A stretch of 64,000 bases of DNA from Candidatus Multivoradales bacterium. Lineage in GTDB: Bacteria; Acidobacteriota; Thermoanaerobaculia; Multivoradales; Multivoraceae. The notes under the pieces were generated by a model that was not told the DNA's origin, made no database searches, and saw only the letters and a program-made list of their open reading frames with translations. The translations under genes were made by a program, and so were the position numbers. Below are positions 1 through 39,118 of the stretch, piece by piece. The stretch's first letter is position 1; each line of letters begins with the position of its first letter. Where the stretch lies: contig CBDCWI010000002.1 in assembly GCA_965223325.1 (NCBI GenBank), positions 3,808,001 through 3,872,000 on the forward strand. The letters run 5' to 3'.

Positions 1-1
1 A

Positions 2-214
2 AGAGCTTCCGGCATCTCAAAGCGCGCAAGCTGCCACACCTTCCGACACTCCTTCGCCACCCATCTACTGGAGAGCGGCTACGACATCCGCACCATCCAA
101 GAGCTACTCGGCCACCGCAGCGTCAAGACAACCATGATCTACACCCACGTCCTGAACCGCGGCGGCCTCCCCGTCAGGAGCCCCCTCGACCTGATCCCCA
201 CGCAATCTGAGTAG
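2..214 (+). CDS. intI: Integron integrase, C-terminal part (truncated by window start)
   Basis: Manual translation: ...[54 protein letters not shown]. It has the tyrosine recombinase HxxR, H and Y residues and the IntI-typical tail, and an attC array follows. Confidence 0.95.
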
Positions 215-489: not shown

Positions 490-517
490 TTCGTTCCATT
501 GAATAACACTGTTGGGC
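490..517 (+). other. attI recombination site (core G/TTGGGC at 511-517)
   Basis: Identity with the duplicate cassette at 7571 starts at this GTT. There is no attC upstream. GTTGGGCGGC is complementary to GCCGCCCAAC at the cassette's own attC. Confidence 0.8.
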
Positions 518-538
518 GGCGACCCGGGGCAGGGACAG

Positions 539-964
539 TTGACTGAGAAGGAACAGCTTGCCACCTTCGTCGTGGTTGTAGCGGAGTTCATGGAACGGCA
601 AGCGCCGATCCCAGCCGAGCTAAGCATGGCCGAACACATGCGGCAACTCGATCCATGCAAAACACCGCTCGCCGGCTGGCGAGACGCTTCTCGCGACATG
701 GTCGAGTGGGCAGTCGACCTCACGCCCGCCGAGGTGTTCGAAGTTGACGCGCTCTTGAGCGCTCGGAACGTACCCACTCTGACCGCCATGAGAAATCGGC
801 GCTACCGTTCGCTGTTGAAGGTCCTGGCCCGTGGGGTGAAATCTGCCGGCGACTACCGCCTCTTAGAGGCCTTCCTCGCTGACACCGCCGATACAATTCT
901 GAGCGTCAAAGAACGAACACTTGCCGGGAGACGCGTTGAAGAGTACGACGCCAAGAACACCTGA
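539..964 (+). CDS. Hypothetical protein, cassette 1
   Basis: ORF fills the cassette. TTG start after AGGGA; alternative start at 512. Confidence 0.75.
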   Translation: MTEKEQLATFVVVVAEFMERQAPIPAELSMAEHMRQLDPCKTPLAGWRDASRDMVEWAVDLTPAEVFEVDALLSARNVPTLTAMRNRRYRSLLKVLARGVKSAGDYRLLEAFLADTADTILSVKERTLAGRRVEEYDAKNT

Positions 965-4114: not shown

Positions 4115-4555
4115 ATGAAGAGACGAATCGCCTATTCCGCCGTTGTCTTTCTAGCGGGAGCGGTAGTGGGAGGAGCCGCGGCCGGCTACTACGCCTACCG
4201 GAGCTTCCAGAACCTCTTCGCTCACATGTACACGGTGGGAGTGACCGGCCAGGTCTTCATGGCCGGCGAGATTCGTGCTGGCCGAACTGACGGCCTCGTG
4301 GAACATTTCGAGGCGTCCATCCCGGATTATGCCCGAGGTGTCCAGATGTTTTCAGAATCGGATCAAACGCTCTGGGCGCTCTCCTCGCTCAAGGAGTACA
4401 GCCTTCGGAACAAGCTTCCATTGCCCACCGAACTGGAGGACGTCGAAGTGATCCCGGGATCATGTGACGTCCCCGAACGCCACGCAGCACAACAACCAGC
4501 TTCACAACGACCGGAACCCTCAGCCGCTTCGCGGCCTCCGGGTTCCGGCGTGTGA
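4115..4555 (+). CDS. Hypothetical protein with N-terminal TM/signal, cassette 7
   Basis: GGAGA RBS + ATG; stop codon inside attC. Confidence 0.75.
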   Translation: MKRRIAYSAVVFLAGAVVGGAAAGYYAYRSFQNLFAHMYTVGVTGQVFMAGEIRAGRTDGLVEHFEASIPDYARGVQMFSESDQTLWALSSLKEYSLRNKLPLPTELEDVEVIPGSCDVPERHAAQQPASQRPEPSAASRPPGSGV

Positions 4556-7561: not shown

Positions 7562-7577
7562 TCGTCGTCCGTTGGGC
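7495..7577 (+). repeat. attC site
   Basis: ACACAAC...GTTGGGC. Confidence 0.9.
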
Positions 7578-8112
7578 GGCGACCCGGGGCAGGGACAGTT
7601 GACTGAGAAGGAACAGCTTGCCACCTTCGTCGTGGTTGTAGCGGAGTTCATGGAACGGCAAGCGCCGATCCCAGCCGAGCTAAGCATGGCCGAACACATG
7701 CGGCAACTCGATCCATGCAAAACACCGCTCGCCGGCTGGCGAGACGCTTCTCGCGACATGGTCGAGTGGGCAGTCGACCTCACGCCCGCCGAGGTGTTCG
7801 AAGTTGACGCGCTCTTGAGCGCTCGGAACGTACCCACTCTGACCGCCATGAGAAATCGGCGCTACCGTTCGCTGTTGAAGGTCCTGGCCCGTGGGGTGAA
7901 ATCTGCCGGCGACTACCGCCTCTTAGAGGCCTTCCTCGCTGACACCGCCGATACAATTCTGAGCGTCAAAGAACGAACACTTGCCGGGAGACGCGTTGAA
8001 GAGTACGACGCCAAGAACACCTGAGCGCCGCCCAACAAACCGCATGCACGTGGACGCAAACCCCGGGCTCGCTGCGCTCGCTCGGGCTTCACGCCAGTGA
8101 TGCTTGTCCGTT
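7571..8112 (+). repeat. Exact duplicate of cassette 1 (511-1052), including attC 8030-8116
   Basis: Line-by-line identity at an offset of 7060. Confidence 0.95.
7599..8024 (+). CDS. Hypothetical protein identical to the cassette 1 product
   Basis: Identical translation. Confidence 0.75.
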   Translation: MTEKEQLATFVVVVAEFMERQAPIPAELSMAEHMRQLDPCKTPLAGWRDASRDMVEWAVDLTPAEVFEVDALLSARNVPTLTAMRNRRYRSLLKVLARGVKSAGDYRLLEAFLADTADTILSVKERTLAGRRVEEYDAKNT

Positions 8113-10458: not shown

Positions 10459-10733
10459 GTGAGGTTCCTTTGGGATCACGAGAAGGCGACATCCAACGCC
10501 GAGAAGCACGGAGTCACCTTCGCGGAGGCCTCGACCGTGTTCGGCGACTGTTGGCTTGGACGTTTCCCGACCCCGACCATTCCGAAGTCGAGCAGCGGTA
10601 CATCACGATTGGCGCGTCGGGAGCCGGCCGGCTCCTCGTCGTTTCCCACGTCGAACTCGAAGACGACGCTCTCCGCCTGATCAGTGCCCGGCAAACCACG
10701 CGTAAAGAACGAATGGACTATGAAGAAGGATAA
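10459..10733 (+). pseudogene. brnT: BrnT family toxin, frameshifted near 10548
   Basis: WDHEKATSNAEKHGVTF in one frame; DPDHS...RLISAR in another. Confidence 0.85.
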
Positions 10734-10950
10734 GGCAGAAGACATGCGAGCGGAGTACGACTTTTCCACGATGGCCGGCGGTGTTCGCGGAAAGTACCGG
10801 AAAGCCTTCCTAGAGGGTACGAACGTCGTGCTTCTTGAGCCCGACGTGGCCAAGGCCTTTCCAAGCGCTGCCGCCGTGAACGAGGCACTCCGGAAACTCA
10901 TCGCAAACACCGACGAGCCGTCGGTGCCTGCAAAGGCCGAGAAGAGCTGA
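10720..10950 (+). CDS. BrnA-like antitoxin
   Basis: MRAEYDFS...GVRGKY...VLLEPDVAKAFP...VNEALR; overlaps the brnT stop. Confidence 0.8.
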   Translation: MKKDKAEDMRAEYDFSTMAGGVRGKYRKAFLEGTNVVLLEPDVAKAFPSAAAVNEALRKLIANTDEPSVPAKAEKS

Positions 10951-10968
10951 CTCAGTCCGCATCCCGCC

Positions 10969-11053
10969 GCCGAACAAAACGTTCCAGCAGACACGAACCC
11001 CGGGCTCGCTGCGCTCGCTCGGGCTTCGTGCAGCTAAGCCTCGTCCGTTCTGC
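10969..11053 (+). repeat. attC site
   Basis: GCCGAAC...GTTCTGC. Confidence 0.9.
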
Positions 11054-11068
11054 GGCGTAGGATGAGGC

Positions 11069-11337
11069 ATGCCGGAGCTGTCCCGATTCTTCGGAATCAT
11101 CATTCGCATGTTCGCCGAAGCGGGCGAGTCGCACCACCTTCCGCACTTTCACGCTTACTACCAGATCATGCAGGCGTTTACGCGATCGGCGACATCGAGT
11201 GCATCGCCGGAGGCCTTCCACGCCGGCAAGACCGACTTGTGCTGGCATGGGCTGAGCTGCACCAGGAGGAACTGCAGGCGGCGTGGGAAGTGCTTCAGAC
11301 CGGCCGCGCACCGGGACGTATCGAGCCGCTAGAATAG
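11069..11337 (+). pseudogene. DUF4160 putative toxin, frameshifted near 11164
   Basis: MPELSRFFGIIIRM...HHLPHFHAYY, then WAELHQEEL...IEPLE in another frame. Confidence 0.85.
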
Positions 11338-11345
11338 AGAGTGCC

Positions 11346-11642
11346 ATGCAACACGAACTCCACAGGGTCACGTCCTTCGCGATCATCGGGGATACCTCTC
11401 TCCGTGTCGTCTTCGACGACGGCTCGGAGCAGGAGATCGAGTTCTCACCCGTGCTTCACGGCGAGATCTACGGGCCGCTCGCGGATCCAGCGTTCTTCGC
11501 GCAGGTCCGCCTGGACGAAGAGGTTCACACGCTCGTCTGGCCCAACGGCGCTGACTTCGACCCTGCGACACTTCACAACTGGCCAAGTGTCGCCGCAGCG
11601 ATGGCCGAACTGGCGGAGTCCTGGGTTGCCGTGCCCAGCTGA
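11346..11642 (+). CDS. DUF2442 putative antitoxin
   Basis: LRVVFDDG...FAQVRLD...TLVWPNGADFDP. Confidence 0.88.
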   Translation: MQHELHRVTSFAIIGDTSLRVVFDDGSEQEIEFSPVLHGEIYGPLADPAFFAQVRLDEEVHTLVWPNGADFDPATLHNWPSVAAAMAELAESWVAVPS

Positions 11643-12226: not shown

Positions 12227-12264
12227 GTGTGCCGCCGAACACCTATGAGGTCCCCTGACGTCAA

Positions 12265-12720
12265 GCGGCAAACGTCTCTTAGCGGACGCGGTCCGTAACG
12301 GTTTTCGATCAGGTTTCGATATCTGACTTTGGTTTCAGAGTGGGTGCGAGGCGAAGCCTCTGCACCAAACACCTATTGGGCCTCTGCCCTCGCTTTCGCG
12401 ACGACTGCTGGCCTAGGCCAGCGGACCAGAAACACATCGGTGCCCTCGTACCGTCCGATTCAAACCGTGCTGGTCACGCCCGGGAGCGCGCCGGAGTTGG
12501 TTGCCTGGCTCGGGTGAGGGGCAGAGGTCGAGATCGACCGAATGCTGGAAGGTGAGTGGGAAGCCCCGTCGATTCAACCGGTCTGGCTGCCGGCTCTTTG
12601 TGTCTCAGGGCGCGTTGGGTGTCGATGCACCAGGAGCGGGTACTCCGATGAAGCGCCAAGGATGAGATCGGGCCGTGTGGCTCCAGTTAGGCGGAGGGCT
12701 CGAGGCTTCCGACTCGGAGA
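12265..12720 (-). ncRNA. Candidate bridge RNA / seekRNA in the IS 3' non-coding end
   Basis: Non-coding and hairpin-rich; core nearly invariant between IS copies; contains a copy of the donor-end sequence. Boundaries unknown. Confidence 0.7.
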
Positions 12721-13761
12721 TCAGGCGTTCATGAAGGTCGGGAGGTGGAAGGCTTGGTTGTTCTTGAGCATGAAGTAGACGGCGCGGCCCAGCTTGTGGC
12801 GGAGTCACGGCGTAGGCCTTGGTCTTGCCGTGCTTGCGCTTGAGGCGCTCGAGGAGTTTCTTGCCGTGATCCTGGCGCTGGGCGAAGAGCACGGCGGCTT
12901 CGGAGAAGGCCCACTTGAGGTGATGGTTGCCGATCTTGTGGCGACCGCTTCAGGTCCGCTTGCCCGCGGACTCGCGCTGTGGGCGGATCAGCCGGGCATA
13001 GCAAAGTGCTGCACGGTCGGAAATCGCGAGATGTCTTCGATCTCGTACAGCATCGTCATGCCGAGGATGGGACCGACGCCGGGGATCGACGTGAGGCGCG
13101 AGAGCACGGTGGGATCGTGGTCTTTGGCGAGTTCGCGGAGGTACTTCTCGACATCGGAGATGACCTCGTCGAAGGCCGCAATGAGCCGCTGGTTGGCGTC
13201 GATACTTTTCTTCGCTGACGGATCATCGAAGTGATGGAGGAGATCCGTGCGGTCCGACGGCCTGGCGATCCTGCCGAGGGTGGCGTCGCAGTTGTACTGA
13301 GTGTTCGAGGTGCGGATGTGGACGAAGAGCTCGGCGCGCTTGCGTGTGAAGTACTGGCGCCTGCGCAGGAGATCTCTCGCGGCTCTCATCTTCTTGGGAT
13401 AGGTGTAGGCCATTGGAAAGGTCCCGCCTCGCAGGAGGGCGGCGAGCTTGTAGGAATCGACCTTGTCGTTCTTGGCCTTGGCGCCATGGATTGCGCTCAT
13501 ATAGAGGGCATGGCCGAGGACGAATTCGATTCCCTCCTCGGCGCAGAGGTCGGCGAGCCAGTACCAGGAGAACATGCACTCGACACCCACGACCAGATCG
13601 TCTCGGAAGGGTTCGATGGCCTCGAGGAAGGCATCAGGCCGAGCGGGGACGTTTCGGTGATAGATCTTCTCGCCGTCCTCGTCGAGGACGCAGAGGTACA
13701 TCTTGCGAGCATGCAGATCGACACCGCAGGTGTGGCGATGACGGCGGTTGTAGAATCGCAT
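12721..13761 (-). pseudogene. IS110 family transposase, frameshifted
   Basis: DEDD motifs GVDLH, VGVEC, KNDKVDS; frameshift near 13000 and further lesions relative to copy 2. Confidence 0.9.
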
Positions 13762-13843
13762 CGAGGTCTCCTTGAAAAGAGTTTCTGTTTTACCGCTCGG
13801 AAGCTACCGCGTGGGTAGCTCGCCAGGGGACCTCAATGATCTT

Positions 13844-13922
13844 CAACCAGCTCCACAACGACCGGAACCCTCAGCCGCTTCGCGGCCTCCGGGTTCCGGC
13901 GTGTGAGCTTCGTCCGTTCGAC
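13844..13922 (+). repeat. attC site, right part after IS copy 1
   Basis: Nearly identical to attC 4487-4571 from CAACCAGC onward. Confidence 0.9.
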
Positions 13923-13925
13923 AGC

Positions 13926-13954
13926 TTGAGGCGCCACTACAAAGTAGTTACAAT
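13926..13954 (+). promoter_or_regulatory. TA cassette promoter with operator dyads
   Basis: TTGAGG-N17-TACAAT; tandem dyads ACTACAAAGTAGT and TTACAATGTAG. Confidence 0.75.
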
Positions 13955-15539: not shown

Positions 15540-15841
15540 GCTTCCGGCTCATCGTCGCAGCCCGAGCGGAAGCGCAGATCGAAGCTGCGGCCGAGTGGTG
15601 GTTCGAGAACCGTCCAGGTGCACCGGTCCTGCTCTCGGAAGAAGTGGAGCGAGCGTTCCTCACCATAAGTCGCTTCCCGAGTGCTGGCGAGGCGATAGGC
15701 CACCGGCGCATTGCCGGCCTTCACCGGATTCTTCTCTCTCGGATCTCGTATCACCTGTACTACTCAGTGAACGATGCCGAGGCCACCGTCGAAGTGCTTG
15801 CGATGTGGCACACCAGCAGACGGAGAGGCCCTGCGCTGTGA
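15536..15841 (+). CDS. RelE/ParE family toxin
   Basis: Paralog of 10023-10319; YHLYY...VEVLAMWHTSR. Confidence 0.88.
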   Translation: MSFRLIVAARAEAQIEAAAEWWFENRPGAPVLLSEEVERAFLTISRFPSAGEAIGHRRIAGLHRILLSRISYHLYYSVNDAEATVEVLAMWHTSRRRGPAL

Positions 15842-15847
15842 CACGCC

Positions 15848-15932
15848 GCCGAACAACGTGTTCCAGCAGAAGCGAACCCTGGGCTCGCTACGCTCGCTCA
15901 GGTCTCTCGCTGCTGCACTTGGTCCGTTATGC
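15848..15932 (+). repeat. attC site
   Basis: GCCGAAC...GTTATGC. Confidence 0.88.
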
Positions 15933-15959
15933 GGCTCGAGCGCCGATGGGGTACGACAA

Positions 15960-16934
15960 ATGATTGCGAATCTCGAGCACCGGCGGAAGCAGGTCTTAGA
16001 GACGGTACGAGCGCTGGTTATCACTAGCTGCGTTTGTTCGCTGACAGCGTTGCTTCTTGGTGCGCAGGCCTGCAAATCACAACCGGATCAGCGACCAAGG
16101 TCAGCCGAGTCGCCGCATGAACGGCAGGTCGATCTATTGAATGTTCGTTGGATGCACGGTGCTCAAGACTGTGACGCTGTACGGACAGATCCTGAATACA
16201 TTGAATGGCAGCAAGTTCGGTATCAGGTCAACACGTACATATTCCGTCAGAACAAGTGCTCAAACTACGAGGCGCCTTTCGTGTATCTACTCATAGGCAC
16301 AGATAGGGCACTGCTGATAGACACTGGCGCAACCATCGAAGGCGGTGCGAGTCTGCTCGGTACAGTCAGAGATGTTACCGACGCGCCGCTGATCGTCGCA
16401 CACTCTCATGGTCACGGGGATCATACGCAAGGTGACGGCGCCTTCTCGAGCGCAGAAAACGCCGCGGTCGTAGGCTTAGGGGCGGAGGCCGTGCAGGAGT
16501 TCTTCGGATTCGAGAATTGGCCAAATGATCCAGCTCATCTTGAGCTAGGCAATCGAAGGATAGAACTCTTGCCGATCCCTGGCCACAAAGATGATGACGT
16601 AGCCCTTTATGATCCGACATCGCTGTTCCTGATAACGGGCGACACGTTGTATCCAGGTCGATTGTACGTCGGCGACTGGGGGGACTTTCGTGCCAGCATC
16701 GCAAGGCTGAACGAGTGGATAGATAACAAACCCGTTGCGTACATCATGGGCACTCATATCGAGATGACTGCAACGCCAGACGTCGACTATCCAATTGGAA
16801 CCACTTATCAACCGAATGAGCGCCATTTACCCCTTTCGACTTCTGACATTGCGGTACTACATGAAACTCTCGTCACCATGGAAGTCCCCGAGAGGACATA
16901 TTTGGGCAGTTTCGTTCTCTGGCCTCGCCAATAG
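15960..16934 (+). CDS. MBL-fold metallo-hydrolase, possibly a lipoprotein
   Basis: LIDTG, HSHGHGDH, PGH and TGD motifs. Confidence 0.9.
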   Translation: MIANLEHRRKQVLETVRALVITSCVCSLTALLLGAQACKSQPDQRPRSAESPHERQVDLLNVRWMHGAQDCDAVRTDPEYIEWQQVRYQVNTYIFRQNKCSNYEAPFVYLLIGTDRALLIDTGATIEGGASLLGTVRDVTDAPLIVAHSHGHGDHTQGDGAFSSAENAAVVGLGAEAVQEFFGFENWPNDPAHLELGNRRIELLPIPGHKDDDVALYDPTSLFLITGDTLYPGRLYVGDWGDFRASIARLNEWIDNKPVAYIMGTHIEMTATPDVDYPIGTTYQPNERHLPLSTSDIAVLHETLVTMEVPERTYLGSFVLWPRQ

Positions 16935-16970
16935 ATGGCAGCAGGTTCGGAACCGGAACGTTGGAATATG

Positions 16971-17018
16971 TTCTCGCCGTCCTCGTCGAGGACGCAGAGG
17001 TACATCTTGCGAGTATGC
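16971..17018 (-). mobile_element. Short IS110 transposase fragment
   Basis: Matches 13667-13714 (encodes MYLCVLDEDGE). Confidence 0.85.
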
Positions 17019-17515: not shown

Positions 17516-17941
17516 ATGAGGCTTCTCTTGCGTGGCGCGTCTCTTGGCCTGTTGGCGTTTATCGCGGTGGTTTATTCGCTTGGCGCTGTTGCAGTCGGGC
17601 TGGCACCGATATTCGAATTCGGTGCCGCCAAGGTTCGTGCGGAGCCGATGACCGCGATTTTCCTCGCGATCGTGAACGCCTCGGTGGCGACCGTTGCTGG
17701 AGTAATGTTCGCATCGCTGTTTCGCCGCAACCTGTGGGAGTTCATCGTCTTGTACTGGTCCTCAGGGGCGCTGATGCTTTGGTTTGTCGCGCCAGGGGTA
17801 TCAGCTTCGACCGTCGTCGCCTTGGCCCTTTCGCTCGCCCTAGGTGGCTGGCTGCTTCACAGGGAGCCGCACTGGCTCGGGTTCGACGCCGTGGGAACGC
17901 AGGAACGACACGCGCCACACAACACCTATGAGGTCCCCTGA
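17516..17941 (+). CDS. Hypothetical 4-TM membrane protein
   Basis: AAGGA RBS-like sequence; hydrophobic; stop codon lies within the IS end. Confidence 0.7.
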   Translation: MRLLLRGASLGLLAFIAVVYSLGAVAVGLAPIFEFGAAKVRAEPMTAIFLAIVNASVATVAGVMFASLFRRNLWEFIVLYWSSGALMLWFVAPGVSASTVVALALSLALGGWLLHREPHWLGFDAVGTQERHAPHNTYEVP

Positions 17942-17947
17942 CGTCAA

Positions 17948-18400
17948 GAGGCAAACGTCTCCTAGCGGACGAGGTCCGTGGCGGTTTTCGATCAGTCTCG
18001 AATTCTGACTTTGGTTTCAGAGTGGGTGCGAGGCGAAGCCTCTGCACCAAACACCTATTGGGCCTCTGTCCTCGCTATCGCGACGACTGCTGGCCTAGGC
18101 CAGCGGACCAGAAACACATCGGTGCCCTCGTACCGTCCGATTCAAACCGTGCTGGTCACGCCCGGGAGCGCGCCGGAGTTGGTTGCCTGGCTCGGGTGAG
18201 GGGCAGAGGTCGAGATCGACCGAATGCTGGAAGGTGAGTGGGAAGCCTCGTCCATTCAAACGCTGTGGCTGCCGGCGCTGTGTCCCAGGGCGCGTTGGGT
18301 GTCGATGCACCAGGAGCCGGTGCTCCGATGAAGCGCCAAGGATGGGATCTGGCCGTGTGGCTCCAGTTAGGCGGAGGGCTCGAGGCTTTCCGACTCGAGA
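17948..18400 (-). ncRNA. Candidate bridge RNA / seekRNA, copy 2
   Basis: Two differences from copy 1 over ~240 nt of core. Confidence 0.7.
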
Positions 18401-19357
18401 TCAGGCGTTTATGAATGTCGGGAGGTGGAAGGCTTCGTTGTTCTTCAGCATGAAGTAAACGGCGCGGCCGAGCTTGTGACGCAGAACAGCGTAGGCCTTG
18501 GTCTTGCCGTGCTTGCGCTTGAGGCGATCGAGCAGCTTCTTGCCGTGAGCCTGGCGCTGAGCGAAGAGCACGGCGGCCTCAGAGAAGGCCCACTTGAGAT
18601 GGTGGTTGCCGATCTTGTGGCCGCCGCTGCCGGTTCGCTTGCCTGCGGACTCATGCTGCGGACGAATCAGCCGGGCGTAGGAGGCGAATTGCTGCACGGT
18701 GGGAAACCTCGAGATGTCTTCGATCTCGTAGAGCATCGTCATGCCGAGGATAGGATCGACGCCGGGAATCGAAGTGAGGCGCGACAGTACGCTGGGATCG
18801 TGATCCTTGGCCAGAGCGAAGAGATGCCTCTCGACATCCGAGATCACCTCGTCGAAGGCCGCGATGAGTCGCTGGTTGGCGTCGATGCTCTTCCTAGCCG
18901 AGGGGTCGTCGAAGTGATGGAGAAGATCTGTGCGGTCCGACGGTCTGGCGATCCTGCCGAGCGACGTGTCGCAGTTGTACTGGGTGTTCGACGTACGGAT
19001 GTGGACGAAGAGCTGGGCGCGCTGGCGAGTGAAGTACTGGCGCCTGCGCAGCAGATCCCGCGCTGCACGCATCTTCTTAGGGTAGGTGTAGGCCATAGGA
19101 AAGGTGCCACCTCGCAGCAGCGCTGCCAGCTTGTAGGAATCGACCTTGTCGTTCTTGGCCTTGGCTCCGTGGATCGCGCTCATGTACAAGGCATGGCCGA
19201 GAACGAATTCGATTCCCTCTTCGGCGCAGAGGTCGGCGAGCCAATACCAGGAAAACATGCACTCGACGCCCACGACCAGATCGTTTCGGAAGGATTCGAT
19301 GGCCTCGAGGAAGGCATCAGGCCGAGCGGGGATGTTTCGGTGGTAGATCTTCTCGCC
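18401..19357 (-). pseudogene. IS110 transposase lacking the N-terminal ~29 codons
   Basis: Open frame with KNDKVDS and QHESAGK, but no start codon or first catalytic Asp. Confidence 0.88.
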
Positions 19358-19364
19358 TGATCTT

Positions 19365-21804: not shown

Positions 21805-21986
21805 CCTATGAGGTCCCTGACGTCAAGCGGCAGACGTCCTCCTAGCGGACGCGGTCCGTAGGGTTTTCGATCAGTCTCGAGTCTCCGACTCTGGTTTCAG
21901 AGTGGGTGCGAGGCGAAGCCTCTGCACCCAACACCTATTGGGCCTCGGCCCTCGCTTTCGCGACGACTGCTGGCTTGGGCCAGCGG
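21805..21986 (-). mobile_element. IS110 right-end remnant, copy 3, inserted after R'' GCCGAAC (21797-21803)
   Basis: Homologous to 12242-12424; marks the end of the array. Confidence 0.88.
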
Positions 21987-22107
21987 GCTGGGTTTGATCC
22001 CGCCTGGTGAAGCGGCGCCGAAGGTACTGGGAGCAGACGAATCCAGGGGCGGTTGCCAGGTCGCTCTTGAGGGAAGCGCCTCCTAAACCGTAGGTTCGCA
22101 GGACTCG

Positions 22108-38149: not shown

Positions 38150-38470
38150 AAACCACGCTTTGTCACCTTCGAGGGCATCGGCGGTTTCGATATCTCGACG
38201 CCGAGCCGCCCCTCCAAAGCGCGACCCGCAGGTGCATGGTCGTGAGAAAACCACGCTTTGTCACCTTCGAGGGCATCGGCGGTTTCGATATCTCGACGCC
38301 GAGCCGCCCCTCCAAAGCGCGACCCGCAGGTGCATGGTCGTGAGAAAACCACGCTTTGTCACCTTCGAGGGCATCGGCGGTTTCGATATCTCGACGCCGA
38401 GCCGCCCCTCCAAAGCGCGACCCGCAGGTGCATGGTCGTGAGAAAACCACGCTTTGTCACCTTCGAGGGC
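38150..38470 (+). repeat. 98-bp tandem repeat x3 plus a fourth 27-bp part
   Basis: Units start at 38150, 38248, 38346 and 38444. Confidence 0.95.
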
Positions 38471-39118
38471 CTCGATGGGAGCGGCAAGTCGACGCATTTG
38501 CGGCGTGTTCTCGAACGACTGCAAGCTGCCGGCGAGGCGGTGGTGGCGACGCAGGAACCGGGCGGTACGCCGTTGGGTGAAGGCATTCGGAGTCTTTTCT
38601 TGGATCGCAACCTCGGTGAGATCGATGGTCGAGTCGAGTTGATGCTGGTGTTTGCGAGCCGGCGGCAGCACATTGCCGAGGTCATCGAGCCGGCGCTGGC
38701 GGCCGGTCAGCATGTTCTCTGTGATCGCTTCACCGATTCGACGACGGCCTACCAGGGCTACGGGCGTGAGGTGCCGCTTGTGGACATCCGAACGATCGAT
38801 CAGATCGCCACCGGCGGCCGGGTGCCGGACCGAACGATCTTCTTCGATGTTCCGGCCACCACCGCGCGAGAACGCGGACAGTCGAAGGCGCGGCGCGCCG
38901 GGAAAGACGGTGGTGTCGACCGGATCGACGCCGAGGCACTCCAGTTCTACGAGAAGGTGCGTCGGGGGTATCTCGAGATCGCAGAGCGCAACGCGCACCG
39001 CTTTCGGCGGGTCGACTCGACCACCAGGCACGAGCGCACCGAGCGCGCGGTCGCCGAGGCGTTGGTCGACCTGTTTCCGTCGCTCGAACCATTCGCCCAA
39101 CCGGCGAGTCGTCGATGA
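38432..39118 (+). CDS. tmk: Thymidylate kinase
   Basis: FVTFEGLDGSGKST, EPGGT, CDRF..ST.AYQGYGR. Confidence 0.95.
   Translation: MVVRKPRFVTFEGLDGSGKSTHLRRVLERLQAAGEAVVATQEPGGTPLGEGIRSLFLDRNLGEIDGRVELMLVFASRRQHIAEVIEPALAAGQHVLCDRFTDSTTAYQGYGREVPLVDIRTIDQIATGGRVPDRTIFFDVPATTARERGQSKARRAGKDGGVDRIDAEALQFYEKVRRGYLEIAERNAHRFRRVDSTTRHERTERAVAEALVDLFPSLEPFAQPASRR

Follow-up and report, generated by a model that had tools for sequence, protein, structure and literature searches.

An IS1111-type insertion sequence in a chromosomal integron and its probable bridge RNA (seekRNA)

What is encoded by the long non-coding region that lies downstream of a transposase gene near the start of the window, by which we mean the whole 64,000-nucleotide stretch of DNA that was analysed? 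An earlier note, made from the sequence alone, had proposed a large structured RNA of the bridge RNA or seekRNA kind. We consider it very probable that an IS1111-family insertion sequence (IS) has its right, non-coding end at positions 12242-12720 (minus strand), and that a bridge RNA (seekRNA) of ~380 nt is encoded there, with which the DEDD transposase would choose its insertion site. Systems of this kind were already described in 2024, and the locus is a further example of them; the known principle of RNA-guided IS insertion is unchanged by our findings.

The window opens with ~21.8 kb that make up the cassette array of a chromosomal integron. Its integrase gene, which scores 422.7 bits with TIGR02249 (cut-off 265), has its end at window base 190; after it come numerous attC repeats of families D1-D4 and D12, along with small cassette ORFs. 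The cassette ORFs include a BrnT toxin, DUF4160 and DUF2442. Three IS copies are found inside the array, all of them on the minus strand, opposite to the attC sites and the ORFs of the cassettes, which lie on the plus strand. The copies and their landmarks are as follows, M2 and M3 being RNA modules described below.

12242..13843, minus strand: IS copy 1, full length, 1602 bp between two core TG dinucleotides; IS1111-type, inside an attC site
12721..13761, minus strand: transposase gene of copy 1, with PF01548 and PF02371; frame changes near 12990 and 12800
13823..13845, minus strand: left end of copy 1, core TG and then AAGATCATTGAGGTCCCCTGG with the subterminal repeat
12242..12264, minus strand: right end of copy 1, with TTGACG (a -35-like hexamer), the subterminal repeat and the terminal ATAGG
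12231..12241, plus strand: 5' (R'') end of the attC site at copy 1, GCCGCCGAAC plus A; interrupted by the IS, with the remaining attC at 13844-13939
17925..19364, minus strand: IS copy 2, 5' part deleted; RNA region at ~18390-18013, M2 at 18208-18108, donor guide at 18058-18047
21805..~21990, minus strand: IS copy 3 (L007), a 185-nt relic consisting of M3 and the right end only

The whole genome holds seven copies of the IS: three full-length ones, one truncated at its 5' end, and three solo right-end fragments (L002, L006 and L007) with lengths of about 480, 290 and 185 nt. In copy 2, seven left-end bases remain, and the sequence then resumes ~50 codons into the transposase gene. The IS ends were set by comparing the four left and seven right junctions in this genome with an uninterrupted attC site of like type (window 4480-4505). 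The resulting scheme reads left flank ending in T, core TG, the IS (AAGATCATTGAGG ... CCTCATAGG), core TG, and then TTNNGNGG. For copy 1 the core dinucleotide lies at 13845-13844 and 12241-12240, and the subterminal inverted repeats are TGAGGTCCCCTG and CAGGGGACCTCA. All four left junctions in the genome read ...T-TG-AAGATCA; all seven right ends carry ATAGG (ATCGG in L002), then TG or GG, then TT, with the right flank GTTNNGNGG. The first base of the core is T or G in relatives and may differ between the two junctions of one insertion, and such unequal core bases would fit heteroduplex formation across the two-base exchange region. A 60-nt repeat at 16959-17018 also resembles the 5' region of the transposase gene; it was rejected as a further IS copy, being an isolated fragment with no IS end beside it. 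Copy 3 adjoins a MoeA-family gene where the cassette array ends.

In cassette orientation, the insertion point is just past the R'' box (GCCGCCGAAC-A), and the IS position is fixed at this 5' end of the attC site, with a two-base core of TG, sometimes GG, on both sides; the transposase gene runs antisense to the cassettes. The R' side of attC, which had earlier been suggested as the target, is thus to be replaced by the R'' (5') end. Insertion near the attC 5' end, antisense to cassette transcription, is the pattern described for the IS1111-attC subgroup (PMC3001079), and members such as ISPa21 and ISPst6 share with our element the IS1111 family, the site and the orientation (PMC3001079, PMC11187229). 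The transposases of that subgroup form a monophyletic clade. The subgroup is from Pseudomonas, whereas here the elements are hosted by an Acidobacteriota-like genome and by metagenome-assembled genomes (MAGs) of many phyla.

Copies 1 and 2 carry a DEDD (RuvC-like) N-terminal domain (PF01548) and a C-terminal Transposase_20 domain (PF02371, both Pfam), and the transposase scores 168.7 bits against the NCBIfam model NF033542, 'IS110 family RNA-guided transposase' (cut-off 140). Copy 1 has 479 nt of non-coding sequence (12720-12242) downstream of the stop codon compared with ~80 nt upstream of the ATG. A long downstream non-coding region together with subterminal inverted repeats is the IS1111 layout, as given in PMC11187229 and PMC11208160, and in these respects, as in having a DEDD transposase of ~340 aa, the element resembles the IS1111 seekRNA elements ISEc11, ISPa11, ISKpn4 and ISPst6 (PMC11187229). 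A scan of the whole window with Rfam 15 gave no matches at the gathering threshold.

Relatives were collected by a scan of one genome per species, which yielded 80 loci with transposases 43-73% identical to ours, from Acidobacteriota, Desulfobacterota, Planctomycetota, Gammaproteobacteria and others, MAGs included. The best plasmid matches, in Vibrio campbellii, Alteromonas and Pseudoalteromonas, are 46-52% identical, whereas the IS110-family genes on Klebsiella plasmids reach only 22%; the transposase is thus distant from those enterobacterial plasmid genes. The downstream non-coding region can be recognised by sequence in most of the 80 loci, and three RNA modules (M1, M2 and M3) are seen across them. 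Compensatory changes maintain each module across relatives from many phyla. Together with the two Pfam domains and the NF033542 score above cut-off, these changes in a conserved structure support the bridge RNA or seekRNA reading. The modules and the segments assigned to them are listed below.

12559..12710, minus strand: RNA module M1, a predicted target-binding loop; closing stem GGAAGCCUCG (12710-12701) / CGGGGCUUCC (~12568-12559) around a long variable insert
12686..12694, minus strand: M1 right-target guide CCGCCUAAC (DNA CCGCCTAAC), complementary to the right flank GTTAGGCGG, the attC R'' end
12573..12581, minus strand: M1 left-target guide CCGGUUGAA (within DNA CCGGTTGAA), reading in the sense of CCGGT (left flank), TG (core) and AA (first two bases of the IS)
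12426..12527, minus strand: RNA module M2; stem P1 around CCAAC (12500-12496), H1 (12494-12472) and GGUUUGAAU (12466-12458)
12331..12440, minus strand: RNA module M3, a predicted multi-branch donor-binding region with helices P2 and P3 and hairpins H2, H3 and H4
12422-12407, 12400-12391 and 12366-12343, minus strand: hairpins H2, H3 and H4 of M3
12365..12376, minus strand: left-donor guide AUAGG, core UG and UUUGG, same sense as IS right end, core and start of the right flank

Helices P0, P1, P2 and P3 were defined on an alignment of 32 relatives, in which 86.2% of cells are paired compared with 33-52% when the partners are slid, and both-side changes occur in 87 cells compared with 14-35 (0 of 500 shuffles reach the observed values). 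M2 is the most conserved module: among 56 distinct sequences 94% of cells pair and 10 of 10 pairs show both-side changes, again with none of 500 shuffles reaching this. A covariance model built from M2 alone (R1) scores 83 bits on 12426-12526 (E = 3.4e-21) and gives 63 matches in 79 sources, including both window copies that retain the module and a Vibrio plasmid element outside the seed (E = 1.4e-6); it gave no match in copy 3, in a Pseudomonas aeruginosa plasmid IS (L096, transposase 34% identical) or in a Klebsiella plasmid IS (L097, 22%). The segment CGGACG, once proposed to contact the target or junction, turned out to belong to stem P1, where its CGG pairs with CCG, and is no guide.

The closing stem of M1 is present in both the MFE and the centroid fold. 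Its sequence is wholly different between lineages while complementarity is kept: the duplex energy of the two arms averages -24.5 kcal/mol within a locus compared with -14.1 kcal/mol for arms taken from different loci, and in 34 of 41 loci the locus's own arms beat at least 90% of foreign partners, most of the failures being mis-anchored by the search pattern. M2 is laid out like M1 with much shorter segments. This resemblance is one of layout alone, because R1 gives only 1.6 bits on M1 (E = 3, filters off).

In M3, helices P3 (GUUUC, 12433-12429, with GAAAC, 12336-12332) and P2 (GGUC, 12427-12424, with GGCC, 12381-12378) close the multi-branch loop and both covary in the 32 relatives. The three hairpins that had been described here were all recovered. 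GCTGGC-CTAG-GCCAGC (H2, 12422-12407) keeps its stem across the genome copies and varies in its loop (CTAG, CCAG, TCT, ACT and, in copy 3, CCAA), and CGC-GAAA-GCG (H3, 12400-12391) does likewise (GAAA, TTCG and, in copy 2, GATA), including a tetraloop swap of GAAA to UUCG. H4, formed by GGTGCAGAGGC and GCCTCGCACC at 12366-12343 on the minus strand, is 68% paired with some covariation, which gives it moderate support. A long-range stem had also been drawn between CCTCTGCCC (12527-12519) and GGGCAGAGG (12389-12381). Its positions are right and it appears in the single-sequence MFE fold; however, relatives pair there in 50% of cells, which does not exceed the slid controls, and the stem was rejected. 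The 5' CCTCTGC covaries instead with a second GCAGAGG (12363-12357), directly after the donor guide, and in the RNA this CCUCUGC/GCAGAGG pairing is P0. Both P0 and H4 show covariation, yet they share the GCAG bases and are mutually exclusive. The folding energy of the single sequences does not stand out (z = -1.63 at 12325-12530, z = -2.40 at 12550-12716).

Conservation of the region is also seen between the copies in this genome. It had been noted that 12323-12565 and 18005-18247 differ at two positions while the transposase genes differ at many synonymous sites, and this holds: there are two differences in 243 positions (12387 C/T and 12395 T/A), whereas the transposase regions of copies 1 and 2 align with 835 matches, 109 mismatches and 28 gap columns (88.5% identity) and have 54 synonymous and 12 non-synonymous differences in 197 comparable codons. 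The non-coding stretches on both sides of the 243-base block are 89-93% identical, with 11 mismatches and 4 gaps over ~157 nt by the stop codon and 8 mismatches and 1 gap over 76 nt by the right end. Likewise, L001, L004 and L005 differ by 0-2 per 200 bases in the M2 and M3 block, and their transposase genes are ~10% apart. The pattern is beyond chance, because relatives in other phyla show this arrangement again, with covariation.

Near-identity of this kind may have a second source. The region may hold real bridge RNA or seekRNA genes that are fossils in this genome, the 243-nt block owing its near-identity to recent gene conversion or mosaic recombination and not to ongoing selection. None of the four transposase-bearing copies in the genome has an intact transposase, the three further copies are solo RNA-end fragments, and the copies are mosaics, as L004 and L005 are identical in the M2 and M3 block and in right-end variants and L001 has the block without those variants. 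L003 and L005 have breaks as well; for copy 1 the frame breaks are not assembly errors, because short-read contigs spanning 12878-13056 and 12690-12847 reproduce them and cover them without gaps. As all four transposase-bearing copies are defective, the RNA genes in this genome may currently be idle. Against fossils, however, the transposase divergence is mostly synonymous (54 compared with 12), so the copies diverged while functional; moreover, the few differences in the RNA block sit in loops or preserve pairing, as selection predicts, and an intact copy in other strains could act in trans. We therefore regard a purely fossil origin of the near-identity as possible but rather unlikely.

If the region encodes a bridge RNA, part of it should correspond to the IS end and part to the target. 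The segment ATAGGTG (12376-12370), singled out in the earlier note as a donor guide, does repeat the IS end, which reads ...CTCATAGG followed by TG at 12246-12240. To keep the two independent, the right end of each relative was defined without the guide, as TTGAC, 11-14 nt, a 5-mer and KGTT (the spacer being 12 or 13 nt in 32 loci), and could be so defined in 51 of 60 R1-positive loci. An internal copy of the locus's own terminal 5-mer followed by KGTT was found inside M3 in 44 of these 51 loci (48 of 51 for a 4-mer), whereas foreign 5-mers were found in 20 of 2102 control trials. Eight different terminal 5-mers occur among the relatives (ATAGG, ATATG, ATAGA, ATAAG, ACATG, AGGAG, AGAGA and CTAAG). 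The three donor-guide misses are an internally deleted element, the mutated solo copy L002 of this genome and one mutated relative. Thus, the donor segment of M3 changes together with the IS end, and the donor-guide assignment is upheld. A right-donor guide, sought in the non-coding region as a reverse complement of the left end, gave only the subterminal repeat and scattered matches of 6-8 nt. CCGAUG (12440-12435) is able to pair with CATTG of the left end, with few compensating cases (L055 and L042) in a small sample, and could be a right-donor guide. How the IS ends are recognised is stated as open for IS1111 in PMC11187229; the subterminal repeats may serve left-end recognition in place of a guide.

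On the target side, the earlier note had found segments that might make contact without being able to identify the guide unambiguously. The contact it proposed for GGTTGAA (12579-12573, inside CCGGTTGAA) agrees with a same-sense match to left flank, core and IS left end, and the right-target guide can now be assigned to CCGCCTAAC (12694-12686), complementary to GTTAGGCGG. Both lie in M1. The right guide matches the right flank at 9 of 9 positions in L005 and at 8 of 9 in L001, L003 and L007; the left guide matches the left junction at 9 of 9 positions at copy 2 (CACCCGGTTGAAG) and 7 of 9 at copy 1. Over 40 insertions the right guide has a mean of 4.0 matches in 9 positions compared with 3.35 +/- 0.17 when the pairings are shuffled (reached by 1 of 5000 shuffles), and over 26 insertions the left guide has a mean of 3.0 in 6 compared with 2.04 +/- 0.20 (0 of 5000), but these results need to be read with caution, as the elements and their hosts are related, while the shuffles count them as independent, which overstates significance. 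The clearest right-guide cases, counted with the anchoring AAC, are L022 (11 of 12) and L063 (10 of 12), with 8 of 9 and 7 of 9 in the guide positions alone. L063 and its close relative L062 provide a case of natural retargeting: the two M1 guides of L063 are unlike those of L062 and match another flank (M1 reads TTCAAAAC with flank GTTTTGAA, and the left guide GGUCGGAU with junction GGCCGGAT), and M2 is unchanged, CTAAC being kept. This parallels the published pair ISEc11 and ISXne4 (PMC11187229).

Short guide-like segments of M2 (CCAAC/CUAAC and UUUGA) show weak tracking of the flanks too (17 of 5000 and 2 of 5000 shuffles, with the same overstatement), and M2 resembles another target-type loop, one that is shorter and is fixed on the generic attC core (T-TG-TTRG). 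This raises an alternative in which the guide RNA comprises M2 and M3 only, equivalent to the published short and long seekRNA, M1 is an unrelated structured 3'-UTR element (acting, for example, in processing or stability) and its flank matches are incidental. M2 is indeed far better conserved than M1, is about the size of the 70-100 nt seekRNA reported in PMC11187229 and has segments that track the flanks, and R1 does not recognise M1 (1.6 bits, E = 3). On the other hand, the flank matches of M1 are longer than those of M2 (9 of 9 in L005, 8 of 9 in L022 and 7 of 9 in L063), in the retargeted L063 it is only M1 that changed with the flank while M2 kept CTAAC, and variable guide-bearing strands are what is expected of a programmable loop. 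A guide RNA without M1 is therefore improbable in our view. That the conservation reflects a function of the DNA (transposase-binding sites or single-stranded DNA hairpins) or a small ORF is highly improbable: ORFs of 61-74 aa do overlap the region on both strands and IS ends do carry protein-binding DNA, but both-side stem changes include G-U pairs, which work only as RNA on the minus strand, hairpin inserts vary in length by non-multiples of three, and the family is annotated as RNA-guided, the RNA of the region co-purifying with the transposase in family relatives (PMC11187229).

Under the bridge RNA reading with all three modules, insertion may proceed as follows. The RNA would be cut from the transposase transcript, going by ISEc11 and IS621, and after circle formation this transcript would probably be boosted by a junction promoter formed from the joined ends. 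On the minus strand of the integrated copy, neither a sigma-70-like promoter nor a terminator was found, and among the sequencing runs listed for this sequence none is recorded as RNA. TTGAC is conserved in the right end, and most relatives have TGT and then GATACT at the left end, the GAAGAT found here being weaker; by analogy with ISEc11 (PMC11187229), the right-end TTGACG may be one half of such a promoter. The RNA would then bind the transposase, as suggested by IS621 and ISEc11, M1 would base-pair with the two strands of its attC target, M3 would do so with the right end of the IS, and strand exchange would take place at the TG core, in both insertion and excision.

How M1 and M2 would share the work is a more speculative matter. 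We put forward, as a tentative and somewhat doubtful idea, a two-tier bridge RNA, in which a near-invariant M2 reading the generic attC core is joined to the donor-end guide and an upstream, freely programmable M1 (with guides of up to ~13 nt) picks the individual site; or else the two loops divide the labour, one reading the sequences that flank the resident copy, for excision, and the other a new target, for insertion. Two target-type loops in tandem, if true, would depart from the published scheme of one target loop and one donor loop. The tandem pair is the only feature of the locus that may be unusual, having no counterpart in the texts of the published accounts compared here.

The remaining features can be compared with described systems. 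Siddiquee et al. (2024) reported seekRNAs for the attC-targeting ISKpn4 and ISPst6, and the element here is like these in that its target is one end of attC sites; as in the IS1111 seekRNAs generally, there is one match per target strand, the top-strand match lies 5' of the bottom-strand match, and the two overlap at the insertion point (PMC11187229). The minimal seekRNA described there is a single module of 70-100 nt, whereas here a 479-nt region holds two target-type modules and an IS-end module. For 93% of IS1111 elements a right-end bridge RNA was predicted by Durrant et al. (2024), who noted donor-binding bases in a multi-loop that M3 resembles (PMC11208160). As in the IS110/IS621 bridge RNA, there is a target-binding loop as well as a donor-binding region, and each of the two reads both partners around a core dinucleotide common to them (PMC11208160), and as in the handshake guides of IS621, the same-sense guides run past the core into the partner DNA (AA and UUUGG here; PMC13626964, Hiraizumi et al. 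2026). In contrast to IS621 as it has been described, the RNA is in the right and not the left end, the order of guide strands is reversed, the subterminal repeats are long, there is an extra conserved loop (M2), and a right-donor guide was not found by the reverse-complement search of the left end.

IS110/IS1111 RNA-guided recombinases are under development as programmable DNA-insertion tools, and the IS1111 branch is much less known than IS621. The locus and about 60 relatives form a natural data set in which target guides, donor-end guide, core and helices can be read by covariation and which includes a natural retargeting. Such elements colonise chromosomal integron arrays well beyond Proteobacteria; in these arrays their insertion splits attC sites and may keep cassettes from being excised.

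Solo downstream RNA modules are a further point of likeness to a known element. They have been described for ISPpu9 and its RNA Ssr9 (Pares-Guillen et al. 2025, PMC12288879), and three of the seven copies in this genome (L002, L006 and L007) are of this type. Ssr9 is reported there not to be required for ISPpu9 transposition, whereas the module here carries guides that track both the target and the IS end.

Three of the seven IS copies in this genome (L002, L006 and L007) are solo RNA-end fragments, which lack a transposase gene. In this they resemble the solo ssr9 modules of ISPpu9. Two of them lie as follows:

C1:2124998-2125287, L006, solo RNA-end fragment
window 21805-21990, L007, solo RNA-end fragment

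In four relatives (L016, L039, L042 and L057), the RNA region recurs as a partial second copy directly downstream of the first right end, the IS end on the non-coding RNA side. In all four, this second copy starts exactly past the internal donor guide, the RNA segment in module M3 that copies the IS right end and core. It looks as if the guide-encoding DNA itself served as a recombination site in these relatives; recombination there could yield solo right-end fragments such as those found in the present genome.

The conserved RNA block (window 12322-12548) is represented among short-read contigs by a separate contig of 212-233 nt, with a depth several-fold above that of its flanks (1032 versus 180 in X3), as is expected where a multi-copy repeat collapses in assembly. 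Away from the IS copies, 60 nt at window 16959-17018 share 90% identity with a portion of the 5' region of the copy 1 transposase gene; on inspection of the flanks, no IS end was found to adjoin this fragment, and the flanking sequence is unrelated.

The surrounding array and the repeats in the window include the following:

window 1-190 and upstream (G000:C2:3807261-3808190), cassette strand, integron integrase gene (L098), TIGR02249 above cut-off
window 10470-11642 and 15774-16934, cassette ORFs: BrnT-type toxin domain, DUF4160/DUF2442 pair, metallo-beta-lactamase-fold protein
window 38150-38495, tandem array of three units (family D6), spacing 98 nt, identity 93-100%

The integrase gene shares its strand with the cassettes and the attC sites; it is co-oriented with the array rather than divergent from it. 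The ORFs listed are typical of chromosomal integron cassettes. Within the array, window 511-810 is duplicated exactly at 7571-7870 (family D5; 300 nt, 7060 bp apart), and this is probably a duplicated cassette.
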